4,567 bases of DNA, taken from the IMG/VR virus record IMGVR_UViG_2734482586_000007; one strand, given 5' to 3'. This DNA is from a virus. Taxonomy: Duplodnaviria > Heunggongvirae > Uroviricota > Caudoviricetes. The translations under genes and the position numbers were made by a program. Shown one piece after another: positions 1 to 4,567 of the stretch (its first letter is position 1; the number at the start of each line of letters is the position of its first letter). The notes beneath the pieces were generated by a model. The model was given only the letters and a program-made list of their open reading frames with translations, was not told where the DNA came from and ran no database searches.

Positions 1-25
1 GGGAAAAATATCATCAGATGGCTGC

Positions 26-379
26 TTAAAAAAAGAACAAATGGTAGTGTCCGCTATTGCCAGTACACCTCAATTGCTCTGCGGCTTCGCTCAGAGCTGG
101 CGTATGTTCCCGGCCTACTGATTCACACAGGTAATCAACGAAACCGGACACCAGTTTTCGTTCGCGAGGCGTGATCGCCCCACCGACCGGAGTCCAGTAA
201 TCGAAACCCAGTTGCAGGAGTTTGAAAAAACGCTTGTGGAATGCGTAGTTACACACACGCTTAAAGTCTGCGTGTATCCACTCACCTATTTTGATTTGAT
301 GCAGAAAATCGCAACTCTCCGGCGTCGCCGGGAGAAGTAATCCGGAAGAGGTTTGTTTGACCAGTTGTATATGTGCCAT
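26..379 (-). CDS. nin-region hypothetical protein, tentatively DUF1367/YbcN-like; 117 aa as read
   Basis: Minus-strand ORF. ATG at 379-377 is preceded by GGAG about 9 nt upstream; the ORF-track start at 421 is a TTG overlapping the upstream stop and is less likely. Stop TAA at 28-26 follows a T7 run on the coding strand, so the C-terminus may be artefactually short. Family assignment rests only on a recalled N-terminal pattern (MAxIQLVK...PA.PE) and on position at the start of the nin region. Confidence 0.45.
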   Translation of the reverse strand: MAHIQLVKQTSSGLLLPATPESCDFLHQIKIGEWIHADFKRVCNYAFHKRFFKLLQLGFDYWTPVGGAITPRERKLVSGFVDYLCESVGREHTPALSEAAEQLRCTGNSGHYHLFFF

Positions 380-831: not shown

Positions 832-879
832 AACAAAAAACCCGCCGAAACGCTGAGAGATCACAGCGATGGGCGGGTT
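832..879 (-). terminator. rho-independent terminator (tR2-like position, at the replication/nin boundary)
   Basis: Plus 839-846 aacccgcc pairs with 872-879 ggcgggtt, with an inner 5-bp stem cgctg/cagcg (851-855 and 864-868). On the minus strand the stem is followed by TTTTGTTGTTTATTT (plus 838-824). Confidence 0.55.
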
Positions 880-967
880 AAGTGCGGGTGCGTTGAGGAT
901 GCCTGACACATCAGAGGTGGGCGGGGATGGGATCAGCTCCCCGCCCGGTCACTCTTACTTCCTGGAT

Positions 968-1231
968 NNNNNNNNNNNNNNNNNNNNNNNNNNNNNNNNN
1001 NNNNNNNNNNNNNNNNNNNNNNNNNNNNNNNNNNNNNNNNNNNNNNNNNNNNNNNNNNNNNNNNNNNNNNNNNNNNNNNNNNNNNNNNNNNNNNNNNNNN
1101 NNNNNNNNNNNNNNNNNNNNNNNNNNNNNNNNNNNNNNNNNNNNNNNNNNNNNNNNNNNNNNNNNNNNNNNNNNNNNNNNNNNNNNNNNNNNNNNNNNNN
1201 NNNNNNNNNNNNNNNNNNNNNNNNNNNNNNN
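968..1231. other. run of 264 N (masked or gap); content unknown
   Basis: Directly visible. ORF-track entries crossing it (869..1234, 911..1249, 927..1310, 933..1253) are artefacts of translating N. It lies between the queH-like stop (1315-1313) and the hairpin/terminator at 832-946, so it could hide one small minus-strand gene or an RNA. Confidence 0.95.
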
Positions 1232-1312
1232 TGAAGCAGATAGCCTCAAGCACCCGCAGTCATTCTACTTACCTCGCCAATATGAAATCAATCAGAAAGG
1301 TGCCCCATAAAA

Positions 1313-1999
1313 TCACTCCTTCTCTTCTTTACCGTAGTGGAGTTGACCAATTTTGATAAGAGGGCGTCCCTGAGATTTGCGGTGTAGATTGGTATCGCGC
1401 AGAGAATACACACAGCCACAATATTCCTGCTGATAGAATTTTTCGCGCTTGCTGATTTCAATCATACGGGACGAGCCGCCCTGCTTGCGCCAGTTATAAT
1501 CCCAGTACACCATGCCCGGATAATGCGCGACGGCTCGCCGCCCACAGTCGTTAACCTGCTGCATATTTTTCCAGCGTGAAATGCCCAGTGAACTGCTGAT
1601 CACACTGAAACCATTTTCAGCGGCGTACAGCGCTGTCCGCTCAAAACGCATGTCAAAACACATGGTGCAACGGATCCCTCGTTCGGGCTCCCATTCCATT
1701 CCTTTGGCTCGTTCAAACCAGTTGTCTGTGTCGTAATCAGCATCAATAAACGGCACGCCGTGTTGTTCAGCAAAGCGAATATTCTCATCCTTACGAATTA
1801 AATACTCTTTCTGAGGATGAATGTTCGGGTTGTAGAAAAAGATGGTGTAGTCGATTCCCGAGGCCTGAAGCGCCTCCATCACCTCACCGGAACATGGAGC
1901 ACAGCAAGAGTGCAGTAGTAGTTTGTTTGCCCCGTTTGGGAGCTCCAATTTGGGCCGTTTGAAATCAGCAACTGTCATAAATATGTTTATTGGGGTCAT
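1313..1999 (-). CDS. queH: QueH-like epoxyqueuosine reductase (DUF208 family), 228 aa
   Basis: Minus-strand ORF with ATG at 1999 (alternative ATG at 1978); no obvious Shine-Dalgarno for either. The translation carries cysteine-rich motifs I associate with DUF208/QueH: [33 protein letters not shown]. Stop TGA at 1315-1313. Confidence 0.75.
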
Positions 2000-2146
2000 A
2001 AAAATATCAAAGAGTGTAGCATTAGAACGGGGCTATCGGAAACAGATGTGTGACTGCTCCCCGCCCTTTCGGGTGGTCTCCTGATGATTTGAGGGTGCAG
2101 AAATCCCTCCGGTTAAGGATTAAATTTTTAACAGTGCTAAATTTAA

Positions 2147-2503
2147 TTATTCAGTTCTGGATTTTGTCGCCCTGCGTATCCGCGCTTTCGCGTTACGCTC
2201 AATCTGTATCAGCTTTTCTATATTTCTCCGCCTTTCCTGTTCCTCCTGGCGCAATAGCCTTACATCATCTGCCAGTCTGGTTTCTCTTTTTGCCACAGAG
2301 AGCATCCAGTCAAACGGCTCCACAACCGCACCGCAGATTTTACAGCGGACCTGACGCTCTTTTTCGTCAACCCGTACAGAGGCGTGATGGCAATATGGTC
2401 TTTCCGATGGCTCATAAAGAAAATTAACCTGATTACGAGGGTCATCCTCTTTTACCGGAAATAAAACGATATTGCTTAACTCATCTTCTGGTTTTATTTC
2501 CAT
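2147..2503 (-). CDS. hypothetical small protein with putative zinc-binding motif (C-H-H ... C-x2-C) and basic coiled-coil-like tail, 118 aa
   Basis: Minus-strand ORF. Preferred start is ATG at 2503-2501 with AAGGAGAGGAG 6 nt upstream. The ORF-track start at 2560 abuts the ren-like stop (TGAATG) but adds 19 residues rich in rare AGG/TTA codons. Motif: PYCHHASVRVDEKERQVRCKICGAVV. Stop TAA at 2149-2147. Confidence 0.6.
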   Translation of the reverse strand: MEIKPEDELSNIVLFPVKEDDPRNQVNFLYEPSERPYCHHASVRVDEKERQVRCKICGAVVEPFDWMLSVAKRETRLADDVRLLRQEEQERRRNIEKLIQIERNAKARIRRATKSRTE

Positions 2504-2560
2504 GCTCCTCTCCTTTGATGCGAATGCCAGCGGTAATTGAAGCCTGATAGCTAATTTCAT

Positions 2561-2983
2561 TCACAGTATCGCCTCCTGAAAATTACCCTGATAGAAAGCC
2601 AGTACACGCTGCATAGCTTCGCTCTTCCGGCACTCGCGACAGATTATATTCAGGCGCCTGTCGTAGCGGCGTATTTCTCCGTCAGGTAATGACCAGATAA
2701 GGTCCGGATCAACAACAACCGGTTTCCTCACCTTTACTCTCGAGAGTTTTTTGCGGGCGCTTTGCCAGTCCTTGCGAGCCTGTTCAGACGGGAATAAGCC
2801 GTAGCCAGAATTATATACATCACCACTTGCGACCAGTTCTATGCATAAGCGACCGACAGACGCACGACTGATACCTGTTTCATCTGACAACTGCCGAATC
2901 GTGACCCGACCGTCCTGATGCACGAGTTCCACAATTCGCGTCTTCAGTTCTTCCCGCTGTTCGGGAGTAAAAGGTTTCGCCAT
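2561..2983 (-). CDS. ren: Ren-like protein (homolog of phage lambda Ren), 140 aa
   Basis: ATG at 2983 with AGGAGG 4 nt upstream. C-terminal NIICRECRKSEAMQRVLAFYQG matches my recollection of lambda Ren (NLVFKECRQSAAMKRVLAVYG). The N-terminal half looks winged-helix-like. It sits immediately downstream of the helicase-loader gene, as ren follows P in lambda. Confidence 0.7.
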   Translation of the reverse strand: MAKPFTPEQREELKTRIVELVHQDGRVTIRQLSDETGISRASVGRLCIELVASGDVYNSGYGLFPSEQARKDWQSARKKLSRVKVRKPVVVDPDLIWSLPDGEIRRYDRRLNIICRECRKSEAMQRVLAFYQGNFQEAIL

Positions 2984-2997
2984 AAATCCTCCTGAAA

Positions 2998-3779
2998 CTA
3001 CTTAACAACCCTCGAATGGCTAACATTCGGACGCCAGCTCTCCCAGTTAAAATTCACCCAGCGCCNNNNNNNNNNNNNNNNNNNNNNNNNNNNNNNNNNN
3101 NNNNNNNNNNNNNNNNNNNNNNNNNNNNNNNNNNNNNNNNNNNNNNNNNNNNNNNNNNNNNNNNNNNNNNNNNNNNNNNNNNNNNNNNNNNNNNNNNNNN
3201 NNNNNNNNNNNNNNNNNNNNNNNNNNNNNNNNNNNNNNNNNNNNNNNNNNNNNNNNNNNNNNNNNNNNNNNNNNNNNNNNNNNNNNNNNNNNNNNNNNNN
3301 NNNNNNNNNNNNNNNNNNNNNNNNNNNNNNNNNNNNNNNNNNNNNNNNNNNNNNNNNNNNNNNNNNNNNNNNNNNNNNNNNNNNNNNNNNNNNNNNNNNN
3401 NNNNNNNNNNNNNNNNGATAGCTGCCGCTAAGTGATTCTTCCCGGTACCAGGTTTTCCGCTGAACGCAAAATTTGTACACCCGGTCATCAGTTCATCGGC
3501 GATGGATTTCGCCTGGCTTAACGCGTATCGCTGGCCGTCGTTCTGCACCTGGTAATTCGCAAACGAGCATTTACGGTGCAACGGCTGGATGCCTGAGCGA
3601 TTCAGAATTTTTTCCACCCGCAACTGGCGATTCAGGCGGTTGATCTCCTCGCTACGTTTCTGGCCTTCAGCAAGTTGCCACTCGCGCCACTCCGCTACCG
3701 TTCTGAATGGGGCGGTTACATGTGGCGGGGTCAGTCGGCGGATGCGTTCCAGAACGCCGCCTGTCGCAATATTTTTCAT
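2998..3779 (-). CDS. DnaC-family replicative helicase loader (AAA+), interrupted by the N run; the N-terminal and C-terminal parts are in different frames as given
   Basis: N-terminal part (3779 to 3417): MKNIATGG...FANYQVQNDGQRYALSQAK...FAFSGKPGTGKNHLAAAI closely resembles E. coli DnaC through the Walker A motif. C-terminal part (3065 to 2998, another frame): RWVNFNWESWRPNVSHSRVVK resembles the DnaC tail (LWVIFNWDSYRSRV) and stops at TAG 3000-2998, just before the ren RBS. The span 3779-2998 is 782 nt, which is not a multiple of 3. Confidence 0.8.
3066..3416. other. run of 351 N (masked or gap) inside the DnaC-like gene
   Basis: Directly visible. It hides the central AAA+ region (Walker B, sensor motifs). 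ORF-track entry 3016..3435 on the plus strand is an N-translation artefact. Confidence 0.95.
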
Positions 3780-4224: not shown

Positions 4225-4463
4225 TTACTCGCTCGTTTGTAACCGCCCGTTTTTTTTAGAGCTTTTTCCGTTATGACGTTCAAAGTTAGGTAGAGAAAGC
4301 CCTCCGTCATTTTCGACCAGCCATCCAACCTGAATTAACGCATCAGCAAAACCAGACATAAAAGTGATGCGATCTATTGCACTTTTTGTAACGCCGCGAG
4401 CGTTACAATCTGCATTACCGTCTATCATTTGTTGATCCGCCCATGCCCAGAAGCGAATAACCT
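4225..4463 (-). pseudogene. replication initiator, N-terminal segment; upstream boundary set by the IS end
   Basis: Frame open from the IS junction to TAA 4227-4225. The ORF-track GTG start at 4488 lies inside the putative IS terminus, so it is an artefact. The first native ATG is at 4428-4426 (MIDGNADCN...), with a weak RBS. Continuing into the linker requires a -1 shift at the A8 run (plus T8, 4250-4257). Confidence 0.5.
4386..4408. repeat. inverted repeat TTGTAACGC-cgcga-GCGTTACAA (9-bp arms) with the same core motif as the 4179-4197 palindrome
   Basis: Directly visible. Core GTAACGC at 4388-4394 and GCGTTAC at 4400-4406. Confidence 0.5.
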
Positions 4464-4567
4464 GAGGTAGCCTGAGTTTAACGGACACTCCTTCCTGAAA
4501 TAGAATGGCATCAGAAGGAGCTAATAATGAGCAGAAAAACCCAACGTTACTCTAAAGAGTTCAAAGC
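4464..4567 (+). mobile_element. left end of an IS3-family insertion sequence (IS600-like by recollection), truncated by the window edge
   Basis: A plus-strand ORF starts at ATG 4527 with AAGGAG 6 nt upstream and reads MSRKTQRYSKEFK..., which I recognise as the N-terminus of an IS3-family OrfA. A candidate terminal inverted repeat begins TGAGGTAGCC at about 4464, about 63 bp before the ATG. The exact boundary is uncertain by about 10 bp. Confidence 0.6.
4527..4567 (+). CDS. IS3-family transposase OrfA, N-terminal 13 codons only (partial)
   Basis: ATG at 4527 with AAGGAG at 4515-4520; translation MSRKTQRYSKEFK runs off the window end. Confidence 0.6.
   Translation, partial: MSRKTQRYSKEFK

Follow-up and report, generated by a model that had tools for sequence, protein, structure and literature searches.

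The queH gene and its product

The DNA analysed here is a 4,567-nt stretch of a tailed-phage record (Caudoviricetes; IMG/VR IMGVR_UViG_2734482586_000007), called the window below, and the gene under study is queH, a minus-strand gene for a predicted epoxyqueuosine reductase in the early region of a Rac-type lambdoid prophage of E. coli/Shigella. An earlier note on this DNA, drawn from the letters alone, had described a minus-strand open reading frame (ORF) of 228 amino acids (aa) as a stand-alone QueH (DUF208) gene. This ORF is present in the ORF list of the window at 1313..1999, and all four motifs that the note quoted are found in its translation. The gene probably starts at the second in-frame ATG, at window position 1978 and 21 nt downstream of the start given in the ORF list, which would yield a protein of 221 aa. 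We place the coding sequence at 1313..1978 because in the copy of strain 200177 the first ATG reads ATT and is followed by an in-frame TAA, with the second ATG and downstream sequence conserved in the DNA alignment, and because the NCBI annotation pipeline PGAP starts a 100% identical Escherichia coli copy at the second ATG.

By every sequence and structure criterion that we applied, the predicted product is a full-length, ordinary QueH. Pfam PF02677 (QueH) gives a single full-length match over profile positions 1-174 of 175, at 220.6 bits (E=1.9e-65) against a curated cut-off of 23.5 bits. PHROGs places the protein in phrog_3217, listed as 'unknown function', and no NCBIfam model matches it at E<=0.01, though PGAP names the protein QueH. 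The sequence matches in the PDB are to Thermotoga maritima QueH (TmQueH) only (7lc5, 7lc7, 9deu, 9dco and 9d86), at E ~5e-22 over residues 27-203, and a phmmer alignment to 7lc5 pairs C32/C33 and the cysteines of RCTMC and YCGC (228-aa numbering) with TmQueH cysteines. An exhaustive search of 1.84 billion cluster representatives returned 4755 matches, from which we drew an alignment of 41 sequences reaching down to ~35% identity. Fifteen columns are invariant in this family sample (C25, C26, C29, N52, R62, E99, R103, C104, C107, R111, K137, Q184, C187, G188 and C189, in 221-aa numbering) and all 15 are kept in the prophage protein. Asp13 of TmQueH corresponds to Cys29 of prophage QueH, in the motif CCAPC; as the cysteine is invariant across the sample, it is TmQueH that appears as the outlier at this position. 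C9S and D13N mutants are named in the titles of TmQueH PDB entries. An AlphaFold2 model built from the 41-sequence alignment has a mean pLDDT (predicted local distance difference test) of 95.8 and a pTM (predicted template modelling score) of 0.91, and a Foldseek search of the PDB with this model gave TmQueH as all five best matches (root-mean-square deviation 1.2-2.0 Å, target-normalised TM score 0.90-0.92), 7lc5 being the best of them (1.2 Å, 0.92). The runners-up are distant enzymes of the AANH fold, namely TtuA, TilS and GMP synthase, at E ~1e-4. The family assignment in the earlier note is thus upheld by hidden Markov model match, cysteine alignment and structure alike. Prophage QueH shares with TmQueH (7lc5, 7lc7, 9deu) the full-length domain, the fold and six aligned cysteines (CC, RCxxC and YCGC), and it is a single-domain, stand-alone protein. 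It differs in being only ~31% identical and in being carried by a temperate phage, in a host that already has QueG.

The pattern of substitutions indicates that queH is under very strong purifying selection. All 84 full-length copies are intact, and their 18 nucleotide alleles encode just six proteins. The mean pairwise ratio of nonsynonymous to synonymous substitution rates (dN/dS) is 0.035, to be compared in the same loci with 0.09-0.10 for the DUF977 gene, 0.13 for ydaV and 0.36 for DUF1627. Moreover, queH is untouched in the prophage copy of the window, whose NinB-like and ydaU-like genes are disrupted by insertion sequences (ISs). Given this low dN/dS and the intactness of the gene even in a defective prophage, we conclude that queH is likely to be kept for what its protein does and not as a neutral passenger.

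A cassette in Rac-type prophages

queH DNA is found in 995 of the 5426 complete E. coli genomes, at 1014 chromosomal places and at three on plasmid records, and NCBI annotates the E. coli copies as 'epoxyqueuosine reductase QueH'. Since queG is present in 5426/5426 genomes, prophage queH is always redundant with a host enzyme. QueG (E. coli b4166) and prophage QueH have the same predicted reaction and substrate and occur together in every queH-positive E. coli genome, but QueG has an unrelated fold and cofactor set, requires B12 and is a product of the core genome; queH, by contrast, is an accessory gene, found in 18% of complete genomes. In IMG/VR, 189 viral contigs encode the protein. Among 50,697 deposited phage records, a protein search found one convincing QueH-bearing phage, Escherichia phage HannyBb (PP925841), whose product is 96.5% identical and labelled hypothetical. 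Other QueH matches in the phage collection were not counted as phages: they comprise unannotated faecal 'Bacteriophage sp.' fragments and records far too large or too small for the phage types that they name, some with mismatched host labels. The suspect records include Acinetobacter MD-2021a entries of 328-378 kb, a Staphylococcus entry of 283 kb and two others (Listeria, Staphylococcus) of 2-12 kb; the Listeria 'phage' QueH matches the Staphylococcus one in identity (34.9%) and in aligned query range. These records are probably bacterial DNA, so that database counts of phage-borne QueH are inflated.

HannyBb and each of the five E. coli contexts examined show the gene in the setting of a Rac-type lambdoid prophage. 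The gene order runs from the repressor through the cro-like ydaS, ydaT, ydaU and the DnaC-like ydaV, in some cases with a DUF1627 gene, to the DUF977 gene (YdaW, 'Ren-like') and queH, after which come hok/sok or a restriction-modification (R-M) system and then NinB-like or DUF968-RusA-Q genes. In E. coli 042, queH sits in the Rac locus itself, adjoining trkG and sieB. One prophage with a 100% identical queH ends with an ipaHb type III secretion effector gene beside pgl (NZ_CP065613.1 4326760-4328586; L172 17761-19587), which makes its nominal 'E. coli' host, FDAARGOS_944, look Shigella-like.

The surroundings of the gene were surveyed in 84 loci with full-length queH and enough flanking sequence. 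Upstream, 60 loci are of the DUF977 type, 11-13 of a zinc-ribbon type, in which an ORF with a CxxC...CxxC-like TFIIB-type ribbon stands between DUF977 and queH, and about six carry IS insertions. Downstream, hok/sok is found in 67/84 loci and a cytosine-methyltransferase plus NgoMIV-type R-M pair in 14/84. E. coli O157:H7 provides an example of the latter at Z1832 (L008 2806-4816), where a cytosine methyltransferase and an NgoMIV-family restriction endonuclease take the place of hok/sok. The position immediately following queH is a conflict-cargo hot spot. In all, the flanks form 8 upstream and 5 downstream clusters. Prophages with differing neighbours share homology from 60-90 nt upstream of the ATG onwards, and 2/6 aligned copies share it no further than the queH stop codon; because it begins so close to the start and can stop with the gene, we conclude that queH travels in a tight cassette. 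On the minus strand at 2052-2075, upstream of this cassette, CCACCC-GAAA-GGGCGG is a GC-rich hairpin that recalls a boxB/nut-like or GNRA-tetraloop hairpin; it is confined to prophages of the zinc-ribbon type and to ones with an IS at that site. The 125 nt upstream of queH fold no better than shuffled sequences (z=-1.3).

The other features of the window are collected in Table 1. The earlier note placed Ren-like and zinc-ribbon genes upstream of queH, co-oriented with the replication genes, and this stands, the co-oriented replication gene being the DnaC-like ydaV. Its reading of the hairpin near 835-879 as a nin-region terminator does not: the hairpin follows hokD, and the simplest reading is therefore that it ends the hok mRNA. 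Its RNA folds at -27.1 kcal/mol (z=-3.85), a value that 200 shuffled versions all fail to reach. The Pfam match of the NinB-like DUF1367 gene covers profile positions 1-102 of 198 only. The frames of the IS that interrupts the ydaU-like gene can be read from the related locus L014, where its OrfA has 100 aa and its OrfB 272 aa; the element may resemble IS600 of Shigella. Since IS3-family elements cut both the NinB-like and the ydaU-like genes, this prophage copy must be regarded as defective.

Table 1. Coordinates of queH and of the other features of the window
Feature	Position	Strand	Remarks
IS3-family IS end	1..72	.	Stretch repeated at several places in related loci; truncates NinB-like DUF1367 gene
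Intrinsic-terminator-like hairpin	835..879 (about)	-	AACCCGCC...GGCGGGUU then U run; downstream of hokD
hok/sok type I toxin-antitoxin	955..1291	-	hokD 3' end 955-967, part of sok 1232-1255, promoter-like site 1291..1262; mostly masked
queH coding sequence	1313..1978	-	221 aa, stop included; alternative in-frame ATG at 1999 gives 228 aa
Upstream part of mobile queH cassette (5' leader and promoter region)	1979..2050	-	DNA alignment and upstream sequences of flank clusters
Putative extended -10 element of queH	2013..2021	-	TGCTACACT; 34 nt upstream of the ATG at 1978; putative function
Zinc-ribbon ORF	2147..2560	-	phrog_1621 E=5e-56; weak TFIIB Zn-ribbon match below Pfam cut-off; PGAP: 118 aa from internal ATG
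DUF977 / YdaW-like ('Ren-like') gene	2561..2983	-	Pfam PF06163 E=1e-33, phrog_142; the gene most often found upstream of queH
DnaC-like replication ATPase (ydaV family)	2998..3779	-	PGAP ydaV in matching E. coli locus L001; middle under N run 3066-3416
IS3-family IS left end	4462..4567	+	Inserted in ydaU-like replication gene; OrfA starts MSRKTQRYSKEFK; copies in L014 and other loci

Two stretches of the window are masked by runs of N, and the earlier note had raised the idea that the first, at 968-1231, might hide a partner gene of queH. What lies beneath is revealed by locus L014, which matches each of the three unmasked parts of the window at 100% identity. The 264 N of the first run stand for 289 real bases, which encode the mok/hok frame and most of the sok RNA, and the 351 N of the second, at 3066-3416, stand for 316 bases inside ydaV, whose unmasked ORF has 248 aa and contains GKPGTGK. 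Judged from L014 and L001, the runs are therefore not length-preserving, and no fixed coordinate offset applies across them. The hok/sok assignment draws on the PGAP call of hokD in L001, on the Rfam sok family (RF01794, 117 bits, the sole match in the Rfam scan) and on the unmasked sequence of L014. A queuosine partner gene under the first run is thus ruled out, L014 and L001 both showing mok/hok and sok there. Nor is any other que gene, or any homologue of DpdA or of tRNA-guanine transglycosylase (TGT), annotated in the whole prophage, from integrase to tail fibres, or in the region of HannyBb examined, so the stand-alone character that the earlier note ascribed to the gene is real. The tRNAs of the prophage itself (Gly-UCC, Thr-UGU, Arg-UCU/UCG and CAU) were considered as substrates and rejected, because none has a GUN anticodon. 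No defence-system family in PADLOC matches QueH at E<=0.01.

Chromosomal relatives and a candidate promoter

Where does the prophage gene come from? Its product is most closely related to QueH of other Enterobacterales, whose proteins are 79-92% identical. A search limited to one genome for each species found relatives in at least 592 species, and context was read from the best 80 species-level loci. queH stands among ordinary chromosomal genes in Scandinavium (92% identity), Kluyvera (91%), Enterobacter (89-90%), Providencia and Photorhabdus, and the clade that is 79-92% identical to the prophage protein extends to Serratia, Erwinia, Pantoea and others; among the best 80 loci, only Escherichia albertii shares the prophage context. 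The statement of the earlier note that enterobacteria normally use QueG is accordingly true of the E. coli core genome, but not of the order, in several members of which this QueH clade is chromosomal. The chromosomal Enterobacterales genes resemble the prophage copy in protein sequence and in length, and the closest ones share an upstream element with it. They differ from it in having no phage genes within 5 kb, whereas the window copy is a cassette of Rac-type prophages. The clade is unusually conserved: members as distant as those of Pseudomonas, Stenotrophomonas and Sphingomonas still show 75-86% identity, and it spans alpha-, beta- and gamma-proteobacteria. Some records carry labels that are implausible at such identity (Bacillus subtilis SK7B5, Candidatus Avacidaminococcus, and metagenome-assembled genomes of Kingella and Simonsiella), which suggests contamination or recent transfer.

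The shared upstream element is TGCTACA[AC]T. The chromosomal queH genes of Scandinavium, Kluyvera, Enterobacter and Symbiopectobacterium have it 34-35 nt before the ATG, in surroundings whose bases have diverged. Its counterpart in the window, TGCTACACT, is kept in 6/6 aligned prophage copies, including that of the divergent strain 200177. When the 80 species-level loci were scanned for TGnTAnnnT, about 17 Enterobacterales loci had it at -94 to -120 from the HxCC motif, 11 of these 17 at -100 to -108; by chance it is expected in fewer than 1% of loci for the latter span of nine positions and in about 2-3% for the former. The -10 hexamers of these loci (TACAAT, TACACT, TATATT, TAAAAT and TATTAT) are all good -10 sequences. 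The cassette may therefore have kept a native extended -10 promoter, which would allow expression without phage promoters. A conserved promoter-like element of its own suggests that queH is more than a passenger carried along by the early operon, a point that the earlier note missed. The leader of the gene (1979-2012, minus strand) is A/U-rich, and a Shine-Dalgarno sequence is absent in the closest chromosomal homologues as well as in the prophage copy.

Because the closest relatives outside Escherichia (89-92% identical) are chromosomal and share the upstream element, an Enterobacteriaceae chromosome is the most likely source from which the prophage acquired it. In Enterobacter sp. ECC-175 (L096 2677-5669), chromosomal queH lies ~1 kb downstream of icd, the isocitrate dehydrogenase gene. 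In E. coli, lambdoid and e14-type prophages classically integrate at icd, and this proximity may hint at the route of capture.

Possible roles of a phage-borne QueH

Queuosine (Q) is a widespread tRNA modification at the wobble base. In E. coli, Tgt puts preQ1 into tRNA-Asp, -Asn, -His and -Tyr and QueA converts it to epoxyqueuosine (oQ); tgt and queA are core genes. QueG, which turns oQ into Q, needs cobalamin (vitamin B12), and E. coli cannot make cobalamin de novo. What could a second enzyme for this step do in such a host? Based on the observations above, we propose, at a probability of about 70%, that the prophage gene encodes a catalytically competent QueH, captured together with its native promoter from an Enterobacteriaceae chromosome by a Rac-type lambdoid phage and kept as 'moron'-like cargo. 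The protein would most likely serve as a B12-independent back-up for QueG on host tRNA. In this model, the Tgt and QueA of the host would supply oQ on the four tRNAs, prophage QueH would reduce it to Q without B12, by iron-sulfur chemistry, and lysogens and infected cells would complete queuosine whatever the B12 supply. Expression may come from the promoter of the gene in the lysogen, from read-through of the early-right operon on induction, or from both. QueH has been described as a cobamide-independent alternative to QueG (PMC6461909). In phage-infected Shewanella, queG expression increases and so does the Q/oQ ratio (bioRxiv 10.64898/2026.03.05.709803), and the oQ-to-Q step is thus responsive during infection.

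Several points weigh against this proposal. A standard scan for sigma-70 -35/-10 pairs calls no promoter upstream of queH; we attribute this to the fact that an extended -10 promoter such as the one suggested for TGCTACACT needs no -35 box. Neither of the two queH ATG codons is preceded by a Shine-Dalgarno sequence when the sequence is inspected directly. The cysteine in place of Asp13 of TmQueH means that the solved mechanism is not transferable residue for residue to the predicted prophage enzyme. The phenotypes of oQ versus Q that are known to us are slight, which makes a selective benefit hard to see, and our literature search gave no activity, expression or fitness data on the prophage protein. 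Finally, the comparison with lambdoid 'morons' and nin-region cargo holds only in part. Variable presence, a slot between the replication and nin/Q modules and sharp mosaic boundaries are shared features, and a candidate promoter of its own may be another, but no terminator is called between queH and hok/sok and the GC content across queH, 0.47-0.52, is like that of its neighbours, so that deviant GC as a sign of foreign origin is not seen; without its own terminator and distinct GC, the gene displays the classical hallmarks of a moron incompletely.

Rather unlikely, in our judgement, is that the gene is mainly a lytic-cycle tool, read through from the early-right promoter after induction so as to raise Q (and lower oQ) on host tRNAs for efficient translation of late genes rich in NAU/NAC codons, in which case the phage and not the lysogen would benefit. 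In each context queH follows the replication genes directly and in the same orientation; no terminator is called between it and DUF977; HannyBb, an isolated phage, has the gene; and the rise of Q/oQ in infected Shewanella (bioRxiv 10.64898/2026.03.05.709803) would fit. Against this, the promoter-like element inherited from chromosomal queH favours expression independent of the phage programme, and queH is intact and constrained in defective, IS-riddled prophages that are unable to grow lytically. We also know of no decoding difference between oQ and Q. Lytic tuning and a back-up role for the lysogen are, however, not mutually exclusive. A much more improbable role is counter-defence. Anticodon nucleases of the colicin E5 type read Q34 tRNAs, and BtuB, the B12 receptor, is also a receptor for phages and colicins; modification of GUN tRNAs might thus alter nuclease sensitivity, or a host with QueH might lose BtuB without cost to Q. 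The conflict cargo beside queH, hok/sok in 67/84 loci and R-M in 14/84, would be in keeping with such a role, as would the B12 independence of QueH (PMC6461909), but PADLOC returned no match, no evidence indicates that oQ and Q differ as nuclease substrates, and the idea is wholly inferential.

The remaining two alternatives we consider barely credible. A non-tRNA substrate, for instance a free nucleoside or, in phage DNA, a 7-deazaguanine base, with a part in DNA modification or anti-restriction, had been suggested in the earlier note, and we found no evidence for it. An R-M system does adjoin queH in O157-type prophages and phages do use 7-deazaguanine chemistry on DNA (PMC6884629), but the prophage has no DpdA/TGT, FolE, QueC, QueD or QueE gene anywhere, and its QueH is 89-92% identical to chromosomal, housekeeping-type proteins with every invariant residue kept. 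An epoxide-bearing 7-deazaguanine in DNA is, to our knowledge, without precedent. Just as improbably, queH could be a neutral hitch-hiker that was picked up by illegitimate recombination and spread with a successful prophage; its full redundancy with the core gene queG and its undistinctive base composition are compatible with such a history. However, a dN/dS of 0.035 is three- to ten-fold below the values of flanking phage genes in the same loci, 84/84 copies are intact, and the cassette has been retained across at least 8 upstream and 5 downstream flank types, including those of IS-disrupted prophages.

What is new here is the carriage of QueH by temperate phages, which appears to be unreported and is modestly new; there is no new protein family or mechanism, and the enzyme is already annotated by NCBI. 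Hutinet et al. (2019) found no homologue of QueA, QueG or QueH in the viruses that they analysed. Our literature search found no paper on prophage or phage QueH, although a passing mention in Zallot et al. (2017) or Li et al. (2021) is possible. When the earlier note spoke of an undescribed phage function, it was thus right in that PHROGs lists the family as unknown, HannyBb has a hypothetical protein and Hutinet et al. (2019) report none in viruses, and wrong in that NCBI already names QueH in ~1000 E. coli genomes. The phage clusters for 7-deazaguanine DNA modification (DpdA with FolE, QueD, QueE and QueC) likewise consist of phage-borne genes of the queuosine/archaeosine pathways, but they serve to put preQ0-type bases into DNA via DpdA, whereas the prophage described here has only the tRNA-specific last step and no DpdA. 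More tentatively, since we hold it to be doubtful as a whole, queH could be the first tRNA-specific queuosine-pathway gene found to be carried and maintained by a virus and could act as a lysogenic-conversion factor, one that uncouples queuosine from cobalamin and BtuB and gives lysogens or the infecting phage a measurable benefit in translation or fitness in B12-poor niches.

If activity or expression proved to be absent, the finding would shrink to routine annotation. About one-fifth of complete E. coli genomes hold a member of a temperate phage family that carries a predicted B12-independent substitute for a host enzyme, under housekeeping-level selection, and the published negative on viral QueA, QueG and QueH (Hutinet et al., 2019) is corrected. 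Lysogens with and without queH, grown with and without B12, would provide a simple system for asking what oQ versus Q changes in the cell. The conservation of the gene suggests a greater importance of the oQ-to-Q step for fitness than one would expect from its mild laboratory phenotypes, and also that phages are able to provide this step.

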